Source of the DNA: a virus
Taxonomy: Duplodnaviria; Caudoviricetes
DNA: 37,769 nt
Virus record (IMG/VR): IMGVR_UViG_3300005512_000112
Location: 1-37,769 of that record
Strand: one strand, 5' to 3'
The notes below the pieces were generated by a model. That model was not told the origin of the DNA. It worked only from the letters and a program-made list of their open reading frames with translations, and ran no database searches. Positions 2,616 to 27,906 of this stretch are shown piece after piece (the first letter of the stretch is position 1; every line of letters begins with the position of its first letter). The translations under genes were made by a program, and so were the position numbers.

Positions 2616-3680
2616 TTGACTGATTATCAGGCGGTATGGGACGCAACAAAAAAACTTATCCAGCCAAAGATGCCGCCTCCGTTGTTTGCGCATCTGGAGC
2701 GCAGCTATCCGGTGCTGGATGAGTCACCAAACGGACATCTGACCATTGCCCTGCCCAGCGAGACGGCGAGGGGGATGGTACTGGCAAACGGGCGCGTCAC
2801 CGACACGATTGACCACACGGTGCAAACGCTGGCCGGGAAACCGGTTGAGTTGCGGTACATTGTGTCCGCGTACTCGCCGGAACCTGCGCCGGAACCGGAG
2901 CCGTTGCCGGCGGCGTTGCGGCGGGCCGATATGCCGCAACTGGTAGAGCCAGACACAATGGAGCTGGCAAAGTTTGACCACGGCACAGCGGTGGGATATT
3001 CCAAGCATTCGCATTATTTGAGCCAGTTTTGGCGGCCATATCTGGGCGCGGTGGCATTTGATGTGTGGGATTTTTTGCGGAGCTTCAGCCGTGATGGCCG
3101 GGCCATCTGGACGGAGCCGCGCGACCTGACTGCGGTGGAGCTGGCCCGACGGGTGGGCGCGCACGTACAGCGGGTGAGCGGTGTGTGGCGCACCTGCCAC
3201 AAGTTTGATGTGGCGTTCCGGGAGGGCGATGTCATTGACTGCTGCGGCCGTCATCCGGGCGCAGAGATGGCCCAGGCCAAGCCCACGTCGGCGTACCCCA
3301 ACGGGCGGCAGGTGTGCCGCCACTGGAAGCCGGGCGCGCTGGAAATTCTCCAGGCCGAGGGGCTGGCCGTGTACGCCAAGCACGGCGACGTGCCACGCTC
3401 GACGTTTTACACGGTGCAGGTATTCCAGCAGCCGCCCCTGCTTACGCCCAACCAGGTCGGCTTGCTGCCGGCCAAAATCCAAACGGCCCACCTGCGCTAC
3501 CTGAGGGGGATGTTCAAGTACAAAAATCTGGACCTGTCGCAGTGGCAGAGCGTCGACGCGTTCAGCTTTCTGGCTCTACTGGAGCCGGAAGCGCGGCAGG
3601 ACGGCCTGATTTTACCACTACCAACGGGTGGTGTATTAAGTGCAGTCGCACGCAATACTATTTTTTTTGATAATGATTAA
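2616..3680 (+). CDS. Replication initiator with N-terminal DnaA domain-I-like region
   Basis: VWDATKKLIQPKMPPPLFAHL...HLTIALPSETARG...KPVELRYIV resembles DnaA_N; FWRPYLGAVAFDVW wHTH-like region; iterons at the 3' end; TTG start with GAGG RBS. Confidence 0.7.
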   Translation: MTDYQAVWDATKKLIQPKMPPPLFAHLERSYPVLDESPNGHLTIALPSETARGMVLANGRVTDTIDHTVQTLAGKPVELRYIVSAYSPEPAPEPEPLPAALRRADMPQLVEPDTMELAKFDHGTAVGYSKHSHYLSQFWRPYLGAVAFDVWDFLRSFSRDGRAIWTEPRDLTAVELARRVGAHVQRVSGVWRTCHKFDVAFREGDVIDCCGRHPGAEMAQAKPTSAYPNGRQVCRHWKPGALEILQAEGLAVYAKHGDVPRSTFYTVQVFQQPPLLTPNQVGLLPAKIQTAHLRYLRGMFKYKNLDLSQWQSVDAFSFLALLEPEARQDGLILPLPTGGVLSAVARNTIFFDND

Positions 3681-4842: not shown

Positions 4843-4929
4843 ATGGAATTTGTTGTGTTTTGGGTTTTGGTAGGGATGGCCTTTGGTATTTTGTTGACCG
4901 ATTGGGCCTACAAGCAGGAGGTGCGGTGA
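4843..4929 (+). CDS. 28-aa single-TM peptide (not in ORF track)
   Basis: AAGGAG RBS; MEFVVFWVLVGMAFGILLTDWAYKQEVR; TGATG coupling to the next gene. Confidence 0.65.
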   Translation: MEFVVFWVLVGMAFGILLTDWAYKQEVR

Positions 4930-5183
4930 TGGCCTGGTTAGTGATCGGCAGAGTGGTCGATGGTGAGACCTACGGCAGCAAGGTGAACGAGCGCACAGAG
5001 GCAGTAGTGCAGTCGGCGGCGAGCAAGGCGGATGCTGCTGACGATGCGTTGGCCAGAGCTGAGGCAAAACATTGGCCGCTGGAGTTACTGTGGGCCGGCG
5101 AACCGATGATTACGGAAGCGCCGGAGGATCGGATGATGCGGGCGATGGGCGCGCCAATGTTGCCGGGGTTGGGCGAACGATGA
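4929..5183 (+). CDS. Hypothetical protein
   Basis: GGAGG RBS; coupled start at 4929. Confidence 0.65.
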   Translation: MAWLVIGRVVDGETYGSKVNERTEAVVQSAASKADAADDALARAEAKHWPLELLWAGEPMITEAPEDRMMRAMGAPMLPGLGER

Positions 5184-7749: not shown

Positions 7750-8355
7750 ATGGCAGACATCAAACTGACTGAACAACAACAGATGGCGATTTTACGGGAG
7801 ATGTGTGAGTTTATCGAGACACTGGCTCCGAAGCGGCGGGCGCTGCCGGTGGGCCGGTTGGAGATGGAGAACGTCAACTCGGCGCTGGGCGGGCTAGGGA
7901 GAGGTCATTGGCCCTGCGGCATCAAAGACATTTCCCCGCCCTTGCGGGATGGCGTGGTGTTTTACAGTGCCGGTTGGGGCTGGCGATTGCGCAAAGATTG
8001 GAGCGGGGTCTTGGCCCGAAGGGAACGGGTCGAGACGCGGCTTGGTACGGAGAAAGTCCGCATCCTGATGGCGCAGACCATTGAACATTGGGACACGGTG
8101 ATTTATCGGCGGGCTGGTTGGGAGCTGGTGGAAATTGAGGGGCGGGAATTGTGGCTGCCGATTTACCGGCAGGCTGATGATATTGAGGACGAGGAAACCA
8201 AAACCGCACTGGATGAGGACCCGTTTTGTCTGGCCTGTCTGGACTGGTACGGGTATGAGGATTGGGAATATTGGGAACCGGCGGATGGTGAGGGCGCAGC
8301 CTACACCGTGTGCCACTGCGCCAATACTGACGAGTGGTTTGGGGTGCGTGACTGA
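7750..8355 (+). CDS. Hypothetical protein with C-terminal Cys motifs
   Basis: GGAGG RBS; CLAC...CHC. Confidence 0.65.
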   Translation: MADIKLTEQQQMAILREMCEFIETLAPKRRALPVGRLEMENVNSALGGLGRGHWPCGIKDISPPLRDGVVFYSAGWGWRLRKDWSGVLARRERVETRLGTEKVRILMAQTIEHWDTVIYRRAGWELVEIEGRELWLPIYRQADDIEDEETKTALDEDPFCLACLDWYGYEDWEYWEPADGEGAAYTVCHCANTDEWFGVRD

Positions 8356-9251
8356 TGGACAATCAACTGATGTTATTTGATTACAACCAACTGGATAGCG
8401 AGACCCGCATCGTGGTGCAGCAGCGGACCGGTGAGATCAGAGAGCTGGTGCGCAGTACCGCTGAGAACATTATGCGGGTGGGTGAAAAACTACTGGAGGT
8501 GCAGGTTAAGCTGGGTGGCGGGCAGTTCGACCACTGGCTGGAATCTGAGTTCGACTGGAGCCGGCGCACGGCCTACAACTTCATCGGTGTTTTCAAGAAA
8601 TTTCGGGGCGTGGATTTTCGGCAGATTGACATCGCCACCAGCGCCTTGTATCTGCTGGCCGCTCCCAGTACACCGCCTGCCGCAGTGGGCGAGGTGCTGA
8701 CCAGGGCCGAGGCCGGGGAGCGCATCACCGCCACTTCTGCCAAAGAAACTGTCATCGATCACAAGCGGCAACAGTCGCCGGAATTGCCGGAAATGGAACA
8801 CGCCGCCGAACCGGTGGCCTTTACCCGGGCCGCCGACCCGCCTGCGGTGGGCGACTCGGAGTGGCTGCAACCGGGTGAGGGCGCTGAGGATGAGACACTG
8901 GAGCGGGAGGCCGAAGCGGCTAGCCAGGAGGAGCCGGACGGCGATGATTTTGACGTTGAGTTTGACGCTCCGCCACCCCCACCGCCTCAAAAGAGCGAGG
9001 CTTCACTCCCGTCACCGCCACCGCCCCCGCCCCCGCCACCGCCCCCGGCGAAACCGGTCGGAGCGGTCAGTTACGCGCTGTCGGTCACTATCAAACCGGG
9101 CACGGATTGCCTGTTGAGCCTGCACCGGGTGGCGGGCGGGACACTCAGCAACGCCGCCAGTCGGCGGGCGACATTTGGCGAATTGAGCCAGGCTATTGAC
9201 GAATTACTACAAACGATACCGTCGGACATCCGGCAAAAACTGGAGGTATAA
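8355..9251 (+). CDS. DUF3102-domain protein with acidic/poly-Pro linker and small C-terminal domain
   Basis: IMRVGEKLLEVQVKLGGGQFDHWLESEFDWSRRTAYNFIGV...SALYLLAAPSTP. Confidence 0.8.
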   Translation: MDNQLMLFDYNQLDSETRIVVQQRTGEIRELVRSTAENIMRVGEKLLEVQVKLGGGQFDHWLESEFDWSRRTAYNFIGVFKKFRGVDFRQIDIATSALYLLAAPSTPPAAVGEVLTRAEAGERITATSAKETVIDHKRQQSPELPEMEHAAEPVAFTRAADPPAVGDSEWLQPGEGAEDETLEREAEAASQEEPDGDDFDVEFDAPPPPPPQKSEASLPSPPPPPPPPPPPAKPVGAVSYALSVTIKPGTDCLLSLHRVAGGTLSNAASRRATFGELSQAIDELLQTIPSDIRQKLEV

Positions 9252-9253
9252 AA

Positions 9254-9670
9254 ATGACGACCATCTACAAAAATGCGGGCAAGGTGCTATTTACCGACCC
9301 GGATGACGCCTACAACCCGGAGGAGGTTCGGGCGCATTACAGTCAATTTGACAAGAGCTTGCTTCAGGCCACCTACACCGTCATCCCGGCCAACGAAGAG
9401 GGCGACGAGCGGGTGATTGAATTTGCCAAAAAAACCGGCACCAAAGGGGCAACCCCTGGCAGTCTCAACGAGTTGTTTGTTGGGTTGGCTGCGCTAGTGA
9501 CGGCAGCGGAGTCTGTAGCCGGGCGCCTGTACGATGACGGCGGGTACTGCGTGCTATGCGGAATCCGGAGTGACCCGGACCTTAAGCCTGATCACAGAAT
9601 CCACGAGATAGGCTGCCCCGCCCTGGGGTTACTGGCGGCACTGAAAGAGGTGGATCGTGTTCAGGTGTGA
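9254..9670 (+). CDS. PRTRC protein C-like prokaryotic ubiquitin-like protein with C-terminal Zn-finger extension
   Basis: FTDPDDAYNPEEVRAHYS...IEFAKKTGTKG matches the Prok_Ub/PRTRC-C pattern; 73 further residues contain CVLC...HEIGC. Confidence 0.8.
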   Translation: MTTIYKNAGKVLFTDPDDAYNPEEVRAHYSQFDKSLLQATYTVIPANEEGDERVIEFAKKTGTKGATPGSLNELFVGLAALVTAAESVAGRLYDDGGYCVLCGIRSDPDLKPDHRIHEIGCPALGLLAALKEVDRVQV

Positions 9671-9875
9671 GATTCATCCGGTGGTGACGGCCCTGCTGGG
9701 CGTGACCCGGTCTGAGGCTGTGGTCGCTGTGGATGCGGCCGCCGGTAGCGACGAAAAGCCGGGACGGAAAATTATCGACCAGGCCGAAGCGTTGGCTTAC
9801 CGCAGCAACAGGAGTGTGATGCAATGTTTGCGTTTGATGCCCGTACCATCGCCCCGCCCGCCCCGCGGCTTCTAA
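9657..9875 (+). CDS. Small cassette-associated hypothetical protein
   Basis: GAGG RBS; overlaps both neighbours; ends PVPSPRPPRGF. Confidence 0.55.
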   Translation: MFRCEIHPVVTALLGVTRSEAVVAVDAAAGSDEKPGRKIIDQAEALAYRSNRSVMQCLRLMPVPSPRPPRGF

Positions 9876-10735
9876 AGCTGGAAATTGTGCTGGCTCAGCG
9901 GTACAACATCGCGTTGGCTACCCCACCGTGGCGGCTGGTACGGCGGTCGCGGCAACTGCTGCGGCGATATTTCCCGGCGATGGCTAATGAGCCGGTCGAT
10001 GTGTTTGAGTGGCCGGAGTGGGTGATGTTGATGCAGCGGCTGCTGCACCAGATTGAGGCGGAGGGGTGGTTTGAGATGGATTGGGATTTGCTGGATGAGT
10101 TTAGCCGGCTGGCGCAGGAGCTAGCCGGGGATCAGGCTGAGGATGATTTTGGCCTGCCGGAGGGGCTGGCCGAAATGGCCGATTTCCTAGATGGCATCCC
10201 GGTGATGTATTACGGCTTTCGGGGTGACGAGGAAAGCTGGGCCGCTACCGACATCGGGCAGTATCCACCGCTGGCCCTGCTGGGCGGACTGCTGGGGGAT
10301 CGACGTTGGTTTGTCAGTGAACAGGACCTGGTGAGCCGGTATCCGGTGTTTGACGAGTTGCACGGCTACAGCCCCGGCCCGGAGGCGGTGGAAACGGCGC
10401 TGATGCTGCTGGGTGACCTGGCTCAGGATTGGCGGGGGCCGTTTGACCTGCTGCCGGATTTAGCCCGGTACGCCCTGGGCCAGACAGGCAATGATCTATT
10501 GGACGAGCACCGGGGTGGGGTGTGGGAACAAGGGGCGGACTTGCGGCGCTGGCAGTGGGACGCGCCCGGCGACGTGGACGGTCTGCGGGATTTGTACGCC
10601 GATGCCCGCCCCACGCTGGATGCACTGAAGGCGATGACGGCCTGGTTCGACAATCCGAATCCGGCCATTGAGAACGAAAAGTTACAGGAAATCAAAGAGA
10701 GGATTGATACAATATGGACGATAATCGAGAATTAG
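9824..10735 (+). CDS. Acidic protein, positional equivalent of PRTRC protein F
   Basis: AGGAG RBS; acidic helical 303 aa between Ubl and E2-D; assigned mainly by position. Confidence 0.5.
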   Translation: MFAFDARTIAPPAPRLLKLEIVLAQRYNIALATPPWRLVRRSRQLLRRYFPAMANEPVDVFEWPEWVMLMQRLLHQIEAEGWFEMDWDLLDEFSRLAQELAGDQAEDDFGLPEGLAEMADFLDGIPVMYYGFRGDEESWAATDIGQYPPLALLGGLLGDRRWFVSEQDLVSRYPVFDELHGYSPGPEAVETALMLLGDLAQDWRGPFDLLPDLARYALGQTGNDLLDEHRGGVWEQGADLRRWQWDAPGDVDGLRDLYADARPTLDALKAMTAWFDNPNPAIENEKLQEIKERIDTIWTIIEN

Positions 10736-11382
10736 CCGAGAGCCGGTTGCGGGGCAGTCTGCATTTGTATGATGATGCCATTGTGCTGGCTCACGTTGAT
10801 GGCCCGGCCTACTGCGTGGACCCACTGGACGTGGCCGCGGCGATGACCGAGGTGGCATTTGGCAGCGGGTGGCTGCCGCGCAACACGTTGTTTTATCAGC
10901 GGGCCAAAGGGCGGGAGCGGATTGGGATTTTTGTGCCGCCGACGGTGCGCGATTTATCGGTGCAGGTGGCCGGCGAAACGGCGTGGTATCAGGTGCCGTT
11001 TCCGGCGCTGCTGTTTGTAGGGGCAGGCACGGCGTACAACCTGCTGGCGTTTGGCAACAGCACCCGGTTTGGCAGCTTCTGGCCGGGGGCGGATGAGTGG
11101 TTGTATCTGGCGCCGGTACCCAACGTGCACAGCGGGGAGGCGGGGGTGTGTACCGGCAATGTGCCGTTTCCCGTGGCCTCGCCGACCACTATTTACGACG
11201 CGCTGGATTTGTTTTTTGACAGCAATTTCAACCGGGATTTATCCGGCGGGAAGTCGAAGCGGGTCAGCGCGAGCATCATCGACATTTGGGCCGAATTGAG
11301 CCGGGCGGGGTCATTGAGTTATCCGCTGGATGACCTGGTGAGCGCCCGGATAACGCTACGGGAGGTGATTGATGCGCAGTAG
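10714..11382 (+). CDS. Prokaryotic E2 family D (PRTRC protein B)
   Basis: GWLPRNTLF, VPFPALLF, LYLAPVPNVHSGEAGVCTGN (putative catalytic Cys), FFDSNFN. Confidence 0.85.
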   Translation: MDDNRELAESRLRGSLHLYDDAIVLAHVDGPAYCVDPLDVAAAMTEVAFGSGWLPRNTLFYQRAKGRERIGIFVPPTVRDLSVQVAGETAWYQVPFPALLFVGAGTAYNLLAFGNSTRFGSFWPGADEWLYLAPVPNVHSGEAGVCTGNVPFPVASPTTIYDALDLFFDSNFNRDLSGGKSKRVSASIIDIWAELSRAGSLSYPLDDLVSARITLREVIDAQ

Positions 11383-11986
11383 TAATGGTTTGCCGTGGCC
11401 GGTGGGGTATCACATCCACGGGCGGGGTAACGCTCATCCTCTGTCGCCGATGTATCGCTATTTTATGCACGGCGGCGGGGTGTACAAGGTGGCCGAGGGG
11501 CCACGGATGGTGGCGGCAGTGCCGGTTGCCAGAGGGCAGATTACCGGCCTGGATGCGGTGCAGCCCTGGCTTGATATAGACTGGCCGAAATTGCCGGCGA
11601 AATGGCTGTGGGCGATTTACCACCACGCCAAACAGGCTGCCCGGTCTGAACAGGAGCAGATGTACCACATCCATCACGATGCGGAGAACGGCTGGCGGGT
11701 GGCGGTGCCGAAGCAGGCGGCGACCCGCACCCGGATTGAGTACCAGGGCGGCGATGCGGAGTCTGTTGTCATCGACCTGCACAGCCACGGGGAGTTGCGG
11801 GCGTTCTTCAGCGAGACGGATGACGCGGACGAGCAGGGTCTGCGGATTTATGCGGTCATCGGGCGGTTGCTGCACGCGCCGGAAATCCGCATCCGGGTGG
11901 GGGTGTACGGTGATTTTATGGAGATTGACCCGCAGCAAGTGTGTGCCGGTTTGGGGCCGTTTCGGTGGGGTGGGGCATCGAGATGA
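11372..11986 (+). CDS. JAB/JAMM metallo-isopeptidase (PRTRC protein A)
   Basis: VIDLHSHGELRAFFSETDDADE; upstream E in EQEQM; IYAVIGRL. Confidence 0.9.
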   Translation: MRSSNGLPWPVGYHIHGRGNAHPLSPMYRYFMHGGGVYKVAEGPRMVAAVPVARGQITGLDAVQPWLDIDWPKLPAKWLWAIYHHAKQAARSEQEQMYHIHHDAENGWRVAVPKQAATRTRIEYQGGDAESVVIDLHSHGELRAFFSETDDADEQGLRIYAVIGRLLHAPEIRIRVGVYGDFMEIDPQQVCAGLGPFRWGGASR

Positions 11987-12990
11987 TTAAAAAACAGCAC
12001 ACACTGACTCAGAATTTTGACCGGGTGACGGTGTTGCTGGTGGGCTGTGGCGGAACCGGCAGCTATGCGGCGCTGCATCTGGCCCAGTTGGCGCACACGT
12101 CGGGGTTGGACATCCGGCTGGTGTTTATTGACCCGGACACGGTGGAGGCCAAAAACGTGGCTCGTCAGAATTTCTGCCCCGGCGAGGTGGGGTTGCCGAA
12201 GGCGACGGCGCTGGCGCATCGGTACTCGCTGGCGTATGGCCTGCCGATTACGCCGGTGGTGGATCGGTTTGGGGCGGCGCACATTGGGCAGTTTTGGCCG
12301 GATCGGGGGTGGGGCGAGGCCACGCTGACGCTGGTGGTGGGGGCGGTTGACAATTACCTGGCTCGGCGGGACATCCACCGGGCTGTGGTTGGTGTTGACA
12401 GCGCACCCACGCGGGCGGTGTACTGGCTGGATGCGGGCAACGATACCAGCCACGGCCAGATTGCGATTGGGAACAGTACCAGCGCCAGCCCGGTAGCGAG
12501 TGAGTTGGGGGTAGTGTACGGATTGCCGCTGCCCAGCGTGCAGGAGCCGGGGTTGCTGGCCGCGCCGGTTGAGGTGGCGCAGGCACAGGGTGATAGCTGT
12601 GCCGAGCTGGTGCAGGCCGGGGTACAGAGCCGGACCATTAACAAGATGATGGCCGCCTGGCTGGATGTGTACGCCGAGGCGTTGCTGGTGGGTCGTAATC
12701 TGGCGATGCTGCGGACGGTGATCGACCAGCGCAGCGGGCAGGTGTACAGCGAGCCGATCCCGGAGCCGGTGGTGGCTGAGCGGCGGGGTGGGCCACTGGT
12801 GGCGCGGGTGGATTTGTGTCCGCATTGCCACTTGCCGGTCATCCGCGGGCAGGACACGGACGAGGCCGGCGAGGTGGTGGAGATTGTTTTTTGTGATGGA
12901 TGCGATTTTCGGCAAACGGTCCAGTTGTGGCACGGCCGGCCGGGGCAAGAAGCTCGGCGGGTGGCGGCTGCGGTGCGGATATTGGCGTAG
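11983..12990 (+). CDS. ThiF/E1-like adenylyltransferase (PRTRC ThiF) with C-terminal Zn ribbon
   Basis: LVGCGGTGS, IDPDTVEAKNVARQNF, PKA, GAVDN, WLDAGN, SCAE; tail CPHC...CDGC. Confidence 0.92.
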   Translation: MIKKQHTLTQNFDRVTVLLVGCGGTGSYAALHLAQLAHTSGLDIRLVFIDPDTVEAKNVARQNFCPGEVGLPKATALAHRYSLAYGLPITPVVDRFGAAHIGQFWPDRGWGEATLTLVVGAVDNYLARRDIHRAVVGVDSAPTRAVYWLDAGNDTSHGQIAIGNSTSASPVASELGVVYGLPLPSVQEPGLLAAPVEVAQAQGDSCAELVQAGVQSRTINKMMAAWLDVYAEALLVGRNLAMLRTVIDQRSGQVYSEPIPEPVVAERRGGPLVARVDLCPHCHLPVIRGQDTDEAGEVVEIVFCDGCDFRQTVQLWHGRPGQEARRVAAAVRILA

Positions 12991-26856: not shown

Positions 26857-27906
26857 ATGATGCGAGTTTTGGTAATTGCCGAGCAAAACGGCGTGAGTGA
26901 GTTTTACCGGGTAGGCACCCCGTATCGGCTGCTAGCCGAGGCGGGATTGATTGAGAGCGCCACCTTTGACGACGGCCTCAACCCGGCGCTGATTGACCAT
27001 CTGGGAGAATTTGAGGCGGTAGTGTTCAGCCGTCCAGATAGCCCGGAACACAGCCTGCTGCTACAGCACGCCAAACAGCGCGGCCTGCGGACGATTGTCG
27101 ATATCGACGACAATCTGTTACTGCTGCCGCCCAGCATTGGGGTGTACGGGGCCTGGCATCAACGCGGTACCGGGCGGATTACAGGGAGGCTGTGGCATTT
27201 CAAGCGCAACATCCAGTTTGCCGATGTGTTGACCGTCAGTACGGCAGTGCTGGGGGCGCAACTGGTGCAGTATCGGCCCGACAGCAGTTATTTGATACTG
27301 GAGAATCAGGTGATGCTGAGCGAGTGGGAGAATTTGCCGGAACCGGCGATCAAAAAGCCCGCCGGCGAGCGGTGGGTGGGTTGGTGGGGCATTTACAACC
27401 ATTGGGACGACTGGGCCACAGTAGCGCCGTTCGTGACAGCGGTCATCGGGCAGCGACCCGACACCAAACTGGTACTGCTGGGGATGCCGGAACTGGCACA
27501 CCTGTTCCGGGGACTGGAAAAATCAGGGCAACTGATTACTGCCCCGTTTGTGCCGCCGGAACGGCTGGGCGCGTATCGGGCCACAGTGGCCCAGTTTGAT
27601 GTAGCGCTGGCTCCCACTGCCGACCATCCATTCAACGAAGGCAAAAGCGATTTGAAAATGCTACAGTACGGCGTGTGTGGCCTGCCGGTGATTGCCAGCG
27701 AAATCACATACCACGCCTGGAGCGCCGAGGCCCAGGTGCTAATGTGGCACAGCAGTTGGGCCGACAGCCTGAACTATCTACTGGACAACCCGGAACATAG
27801 CGCCCGGTTGGGTCAGAAATTGCGGGCGCGGGTGACGCGCGAGCGCGCCTACGAATATAATTTTGCTAATTGGCTGAACGCCCTGGGCGTGTCGCCACTG
27901 GATTGA
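26857..27906 (+). CDS. GT-B glycosyltransferase (GT4-like)
   Basis: FYRVGTP, IVDIDDNL, ADVLTVST, FDVALAP...FNEGKSDLKMLQYGVCGLPVIAS. Confidence 0.9.
   Translation: MMRVLVIAEQNGVSEFYRVGTPYRLLAEAGLIESATFDDGLNPALIDHLGEFEAVVFSRPDSPEHSLLLQHAKQRGLRTIVDIDDNLLLLPPSIGVYGAWHQRGTGRITGRLWHFKRNIQFADVLTVSTAVLGAQLVQYRPDSSYLILENQVMLSEWENLPEPAIKKPAGERWVGWWGIYNHWDDWATVAPFVTAVIGQRPDTKLVLLGMPELAHLFRGLEKSGQLITAPFVPPERLGAYRATVAQFDVALAPTADHPFNEGKSDLKMLQYGVCGLPVIASEITYHAWSAEAQVLMWHSSWADSLNYLLDNPEHSARLGQKLRARVTRERAYEYNFANWLNALGVSPLD

Follow-up and report, generated by a model that had tools for sequence, protein, structure and literature searches.

The window, i.e. the whole stretch of DNA that was analysed, is a 37.8-kb viral record that is ca. 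55% complete. In family and PHROG scans of the window, the part that follows 15.2 kb matches terminase, portal, scaffold, major head, tape-measure and Dit proteins; an HTH repressor is encoded near the left end. Just 5' of the terminase sits a coupled run of genes (Table 1) that encodes, in order, a DUF3102 protein, the open reading frame (ORF) of a ubiquitin-like protein (Ubl), a 72-codon ORF, a 303-aa acidic protein, a Prok-E2_D protein, a Prok-JAB peptidase and a ThiF/E1 enzyme. The closest relatives of the JAB protein in species genomes (among the best 80 of 193 loci) belong to the Ardenticatenaceae, Anaerolineae and other Chloroflexota at ca. 40% identity, and therefore the host of this tailed phage is probably a member of the Chloroflexota. 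Elsewhere in the window, a glycosyltransferase (phrog_7162, E 3e-30) is encoded amid the structural genes at 26857-27906. Positions 2616-3680 encode a replication-initiator-like protein (by eye), unannotated and without a family match in the NCBIfam, Pfam and PHROG scans, which is shared with positions 1675-2718 of the phage locus L102 and lies 5' of the cassette in both phages.

Table 1. Coordinates of the Ubl cassette and of the related family Y gene in the window.
Feature	Position	Strand	Description and basis
Family Y stand-alone gene	4929..5183	+	Own Shine-Dalgarno sequence and ATG; homologous to the tails of P0032, P0033 and P0036
DUF3102 protein	8355..9251	+	N-terminal DUF3102 domain and acidic/Pro-rich linker; position of PRTRC protein E and ParB in plasmid cassettes; Pfam/PHROG scans
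Shine-Dalgarno sequence of Ubl gene	9242..9247	+	GGAGGT, within the end of the preceding gene; sequence
Ubl-plus-tail ORF	9254-9670	+	138 aa, ATG start; reads ...FAKKTGTKG(65)-ATPG...YCVLCG...HRIHEIGCP...VQV-stop
Ubl domain	9254..9448	+	Prok_Ub/PRTRC-C-like beta-grasp; ends at Lys64-Gly65 (Gly codon 9446-9448), the predicted cleavage point; family matches, model, Gly invariant in 30- and 34-row alignments
73-aa tail, in frame	9449..9670	+	Helix / C99-x2-C102-x14-H117-x3-C121 / helix; predicted single-Zn module; motif codons 9548-9616; without own start
PPxGF-domain gene, separate	9657..9875	+	GTG start; GAGGT at 9647-9651 inside the last codons of the tail; phmmer E 4e-11 to P0020 tail; profile E 5e-8
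Acidic 303-aa protein	9824..10735	+	Position of PRTRC protein F / 6d alpha-helical protein; position, and by-eye likeness to same-place genes of L005, L008 and L009
E2-like protein	10714..11382	+	Prok-E2_D / PRTRC_B-like, conserved Cys146; family match, alignment
JAB/JAMM peptidase	11369..11986	+	Prok-JAB / PRTRC_A-like; E96...H138-S-H140-x7-S148-x2-D151 intact; family match, alignment
E1/ThiF-like enzyme	11941..12990	+	GCGGTG motif, conserved Cys in SCAEL, C-terminal CxxC...CxxC; family match; likely start ATG 11983, overlapping the JAB stop

An earlier note on this DNA had described a Ubl that ends at KTGTKG (residue 65) and runs on in frame for 73 residues with CVLC...HEIGC, and the ORF and its motifs re-read as claimed. 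The matches of the Ubl domain to curated families lie under the respective cut-offs, both for residues 11-65 and PRTRC_C (TIGR03738; E 0.0025, 17.9 bits, cut-off 45.95) and for residues 11-63 and Pfam Prok_Ub (E 8e-5, 22.8 bits, cut-off 25), and six homologues of the window Ubl exceed the Prok_Ub cut-off. The AlphaFold2 model computed from the 34-row alignment has a pLDDT of 90-95 over residues 1-60 (the single-sequence fold, with a pLDDT of 39.5, was uninformative). With this model, Foldseek returns ubiquitin as the top match in the PDB (E 0.08, prob 0.84) and zero PDB matches at E <= 0.001, VIA-align returns beta-grasp proteins at Z 4-5, and the structure search of BFVD gave nothing at E <= 0.001. 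These structure matches are consistent with a beta-grasp fold, but modest.

In addition to the Ubl, the cassette encodes three enzyme-like proteins whose family matches exceed the Pfam cut-offs. The E2-like protein scores 66.5 bits against Prok-E2_D (cut-off 25), and its Cys146 is invariant in 4/4 sequences; the candidate position for a conserved His 3' of this Cys is Asp in the window, in Nostoc PCC 7120 and in three Chloroflexota genome loci (L016, L024 and L030), and His in L005, L008 and L009. The JAB protein, which carries an N-terminal extension, scores 36 bits against Prok-JAB (cut-off 25), with E96, H138, H140, S148 and D151 invariant in 27 sequences, and no solved structure matched its profile by sequence. 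The JAB motif is also intact in L005, L008, L009 and L096, contigs found via Ubl or E1 searches; its integrity in most of the genome loci is circular, because these were fetched using the JAB motif. The E1-like protein scores 57 bits against ThiF (cut-off 28), and its top NCBIfam match is PRTRC_ThiF (E 1e-28, under the cut-off). Every reading frame of the cassette is open, and signals of translational coupling are present. No NCBIfam match was obtained for the DUF3102 protein, and no NCBIfam, Pfam or PHROG match for the acidic 303-aa protein. ParB-like proteins (by eye) lie 5' of the Ubl in related phages, at the place of the DUF3102 protein (L008 4692-6011, L009 4120-4995, L010 4675-5946 and L102 2892-3770). 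The terminase (phrog_38) was found in two of the five related viral records, the remaining three being viral by collection label alone.

The closest known counterpart of this gene content is operon type 6d, which has been predicted to be ubiquitin-like since 2006 and the Ubls of which, in the accessible text, are small, stand alone and end in Gly (Iyer, Burroughs and Aravind, 2006; PMC1779556). Type 6d is the PRTRC cassette of the family databases (NCBIfam TIGR03735-TIGR03738; Pfam Prok_Ub, Prok-E2_D and Prok-JAB). In common with it, the window has the gene order Ubl, alpha-helical-position gene, E2-D, JAB and E1 found in Rhodoferax and Polaromonas plasmids, a separate JAB with the full JAMM motif, an E1/ThiF-like enzyme and a family D E2 with the conserved Cys. 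Further traits of type 6d are a His conserved downstream of the E2 Cys, an alpha-helical protein (PRTRC F) and a JAB-N domain with Arg/Trp. Unlike the 6d Ubls as that text describes them, the window Ubl has a 73-aa extension; the Rhodoferax and Nostoc plasmid Ubls are not standalone either, and in the annotated plasmid cassettes of RefSeq, Polaromonas protein C ends at the Gly, while Rhodoferax protein C (141 aa) and the Nostoc PCC 7120 Ubl (140 aa) extend beyond TKG. Also different from the plasmid cassettes are the location in a tailed phage and the variable phage cargo after the Gly. The PRTRC C, B, A and ThiF matches of the window all lie under the curated NCBIfam cut-offs, and no match to PRTRC ParB, E or F was found among the 15 proteins scanned against NCBIfam from this ca. 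55% complete record. Judged by these sequence matches, the window cassette is a divergent PRTRC-like/6d variant and not a strict PRTRC member. No study of 6d/PRTRC function, processing or tails was found in the literature searches made; subscription papers or supplements could describe such fusions.

When 1.84 billion representatives were searched with a profile of the Ubl, 37 matched, and 29 were retained after removal of the window protein itself, the frameshift-like P0005, three false matches and three poly-Ubl proteins. The protein extends past the Gly in 23/29 of these cluster representatives and is Gly-terminal in 6/29; the extended proteins comprise ten with PPxGF tails, four with DUF551 tails, four with family Y tails, three with unique tails, one with an 18-aa tail, and P0002 (its tail, as that of P0003, was classed by eye and is outside the tail profiles and the tree). 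In this breakdown, distinct tails are over-represented because the clustering was done on whole proteins, at 50% identity. P0028, P0029 and P0035 are linear poly-Ubl proteins with several TGTKG-ending repeats, the layout of a polyubiquitin-like precursor. Since a genome scan using the Ubl alignment gave no matches, genome loci were gathered via the JAB gene, with the best 80 of 193 kept; L002-L004 were rejected, the matches being spurious and in a non-coding frame. In the combined set of 122 Ubls from proteins and loci, which leaves out duplicates and the P0002/P0003 records, 60 carry extensions of 2-10 aa, 46 carry longer tails, 14 are Gly-terminal and two are cut by contig ends (L113, counted as 'free' in this set, looks spurious and was excluded from the tree). 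The short extensions comprise 55 near-copies from Dehalococcoidia/SAR202 genomes and five cyanobacterial sequences. Extension beyond the Gly is thus the norm in this family.

Despite this variety, the Ubl ends in Lys-Gly in 120/122 cases (Leu-Gly in 2/122), and Gly65 itself is invariant in both alignments (Table 1). The alignment of homologues for tail variability that the earlier note had proposed gave at least eight unrelated tail types behind the conserved Gly. Retention of Lys-Gly before unrelated sequences is what would be expected at a processing site. The first residue of the tail is A, S or G in 28 of the 46 long tails. Within Dehalococcoidia/SAR202, near-identical cassettes with 4-10-aa Ubl extensions (L022-L095) occur in dozens of genomes, often in multiple copies per chromosome, and in L071 and L076 the Ubl is instead fused to the next gene. 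At window positions 9440-9448, and at the corresponding codons of L008-L107, Lys-Gly is mostly encoded by AAGGG(G/A/C). This stretch resembles a Shine-Dalgarno sequence, and it could promote translation of a gene that begins right after the Gly and so ease fusion and fission.

The mutually unrelated tail types, at least eight in number, are PPxGF, DUF551 and family Y together with the unique tails of the window, P0008, P0025, P0026 and L101. The commonest is a domain of ca. 75 aa, usually ending in PPxGF (18 profile matches), which is fused directly after Lys-Gly in many relatives and is a gene of its own in the window. This gene, shorter in the middle than its relatives and with no usable feature match for its ORF in the Atlas, begins right behind the tail, and the 73-aa tail is therefore an insertion between the Ubl and its usual partner. 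This arrangement recurs in the phage locus L010, where the Ubl Lys-Gly is followed by a DUF551-like tail and then by an overlapping, GTG-started PPxGF gene. In P0002 (by eye), the Ubl Lys-Gly is followed in one frame by a CxxC...CxxC ribbon and a PPIGF-ending domain, as in a cargo insert that is still fused on both sides.

The view that such tails are captured phage genes is supported by family Y, the tails of which have a free-standing homologue in the window itself (E 3.8e-8 from P0033 and 2.4e-4 from P0032; family Y profile E 1e-10 over 2051 frames). The protein of this gene has a C-terminal MMR-x(3)-G-x-P-x-LPG-type motif, the enclosing 4860-5183 frame has no Pfam match, and a further, weak family Y match lies at L102 9136-9837 (E 0.002). 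On a tree of the Ubls, the tail labels are scattered (25 changes versus a shuffled mean of 30.6; near-copies thinned to 60 rows, few columns, 65), and the six DUF551-type fusions (four assigned by Pfam, two by similarity) require six changes, at least five of them forced by starred branches of this 65-column tree. Unrelated small genes are also found between other cassette genes in L008, L009, L096 and L102. Fusion or fission needs just a small change, because in L102 the start of the PPxGF gene is overlapped by the Ubl stop, and in L074 a two-residue tail results from an ATGA overlap. In several of the direct fusions the cargo has lost its start, and P0004 and P0038, whose Ubls are distant, have in common a two-domain tail (45% identity over 227 aa); both observations leave room for selection on cargo delivery beyond mere tolerance.

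The window tail looks to be coding, as judged from its sequence. Its GC content at the three codon positions (0.71/0.45/0.66) resembles that of the neighbouring genes, its frame has the best codon score among the six, and the gene that follows has its Shine-Dalgarno sequence in the final codons of the tail; within the tail itself, no in-frame start is preceded by such a sequence. The spacing of C99, C102, H117 and C121 predicts binding of a single zinc. The tail is modelled by AlphaFold2 at a pLDDT of ca. 50-60, has no Pfam or PHROG match, and resembles small phage and Chloroflexota hypothetical proteins in the Atlas at scores of 0.78-0.81, which are below the reliability bar and serve as leads only. 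No homologue was found among 32 candidates of 40-128 aa, in five related phage records or, with confirmation, across 125 viral stretches; 2365 longer candidates gave the tail itself alone, 50,697 phages a single match at E=5, and 401 Anaerolineae-class genomes 18 matches at E <= 0.05, for a chance expectation of ca. 20 (best E 0.003), all of these searches being weak under ca. 35% identity. A free-standing homologue, such as that of family Y, was thus not found for the window tail in these searches, and a survey of 1218 small ORFs from the window and the phage loci gave no second convincing CxxC..H..C ORF. By analogy with family Y and DUF551, and with the sub-threshold Atlas look-alikes, the 73-aa tail likely originated as a small phage gene that was taken up as a passenger, and is probably not a dedicated effector.

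Processing of Ubl fusions by JAB enzymes has precedents in two bacterial systems. In the accessible parts of the respective reports, BilC cuts BilA after Gly97, and also from a Ubl-GFP fusion (10.1101/2023.09.26.559546), and in BubAB, a Ubl-E2 fusion, cleavage by the JAB domain of BubCD occurs after G229 (PMC11601596). As far as these texts describe it, the Type I Bub cassette resembles the window in having the Ubl in frame with a whole downstream domain, and its JAB releases the Ubl after a conserved Gly; its partner is always E2, its JAB is fused to E1, its chemistry is oxyester and BubE is present. By comparison, JAB, E1 and E2 are separate in the window, E1 and E2 keep their cysteines, the partner of the Ubl varies across the family, and no DUF6527 (BubE) match was found among the window proteins scanned against Pfam. 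Type II Bil, in the text available, shares the JAB pre-processing, and its Ubl runs at most nine residues beyond the Gly, much as the Dehalococcoidia and cyanobacterial relatives do with their 2-10-aa tails; unlike the window cassette, Type II Bil is a host anti-phage system with a multidomain E1, a different E2 and natural tails that are short peptides rather than domains. In its accessible text, a further report deals with fused E2s and with how Bil/Bub Ubls vary at the N-terminus, and not with variable C-terminal cargo (PMC11601603).

A cut by JAB after TKG, as the earlier note had proposed, is supported by the Lys-Gly kept before unrelated tails, the complete JAMM motif and the BilC and BubCD precedents, and by this analogy cleavage after Gly65 is likely. 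The explanation that accounts best for the locus, and that is regarded as reasonably probable, is that JAB frees the Ubl at Gly65 for activation and attachment by E1 and E2, with the tail as a likely captured passenger bearing a predicted zinc site. Once the tag had been freed, E1 would adenylate Gly65, a thioester would be relayed from the SCAEL Cys of E1 to Cys146 of E2, and the tag would be conjugated to lysines of target proteins. The tail would have been acquired by way of a Ubl gene often without its own stop and of small phage genes that insert at cassette junctions; an in-frame insert behind the Gly would cost little, because JAB would trim anything downstream of it. The released tail would be a by-product, beginning Ala-Thr-Pro and made 1:1 with the tag. 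This tail probably retains any accessory role that its free ancestor had, and would be dispensable for the tagging system.

Eukaryotic ubiquitin-ribosomal protein fusions (UBA52/eL40, RPS27A/eS31 and FAU/eS30) place a Ubl before a small, sometimes zinc-binding protein, which is released by a peptidase, and their ribosomal partners are fixed and essential. The partners of the phage Ubls are, unlike these, swapped often and, with no Pfam match, have no ribosomal relation, so that the likeness is one of analogy and not of tail homology. A tentative reading, rather doubtful at present, takes the Lys-Gly junction as a selected 'fuse-and-release' slot, in which the Ubl would serve as an expression handle, and cleavage by JAB as a timed switch, for delivering interchangeable accessory proteins (DUF551, family Y and zinc modules) 1:1 with the activated tag. 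If this were true, the junction would be a prokaryotic-virus counterpart of the ubiquitin-ribosomal-protein fusions with an open cargo bay.

It is rather unlikely that the cut releases a zinc module which is a dedicated effector, itself selected for 1:1 release with the tag in the manner of the ribosomal proteins. Such an effector, made through the fusion only, would agree with a coding-like tail without its own start, with the mostly small first tail residues and with the recurrence of DUF551 and family Y tails on distant Ubls. However, the separate Zn-finger effector proposed in the earlier note was not borne out, as no homologue of the window tail, fused or free, was found in the searches made, zinc binding is predicted from the motif alone, the tails are interchangeable and in most relatives not zinc fingers, and unrelated phage genes insert at other cassette junctions too.

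It is improbable that the fusion stays unprocessed and makes no tag, the Ubl being a stable N-terminal domain or the cassette copy decaying. The Asp at the His position of the E2, and the PPxGF gene with its shortened middle and moderate score, would fit decay, but this Asp variant is natural in other lineages, the cassette frames are open and coupled, the catalytic residues of JAB, E1 and E2 are retained and Lys-Gly is conserved whatever the tail.

It is very improbable that the tail reflects a misassembly or a chance read-through into non-coding sequence, for although 14/122 relatives end at the Gly, 7.3% of 20,000 shuffles of the tail DNA leave its 73 codons stop-free, and the matching contigs are possibly of one source, just 0.025% of the shuffles are stop-free with CxxC..H..C (a pattern picked after being seen), the codon-position GC and codon score are gene-like, the Shine-Dalgarno sequence of the next gene lies in the tail end, the 3799-nt contig L011 agrees with the window at every base but one N, and L010 has the same architecture with a Pfam-type cargo. 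The L011 match gives no independent support, because that contig is possibly from the same source as the window. One DNA sequencing run holds a relative of ca. 94% identity, the contig of which stops 8 nt after the Gly codon, short of bridging the junction, and no RNA sequencing run is listed as containing the sequence.

Processing of Ubl fusions by JAB enzymes is already known, and a phage-borne 6d cassette with a swappable slot after the Gly appears, from the literature searches made, not to be in print. As surveyed here, the 6d/PRTRC Ubl is usually born masked, which would therefore make JAB its obligatory activator, and a cut after Lys-Gly offers a simple first assay for the whole family. 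With this cassette, a ubiquitin-like tagging kit is seen in a phage as well, whereas the characterised bacterial systems are host defences or proposed ones, and a tail-blind bacterial JAB/Ubl pair would be a possible cleavable fusion tag. More generally, a processing protease can make the end of a gene a tolerated landing site for new domains, which is a plausible route to fixed ubiquitin-fusion genes.
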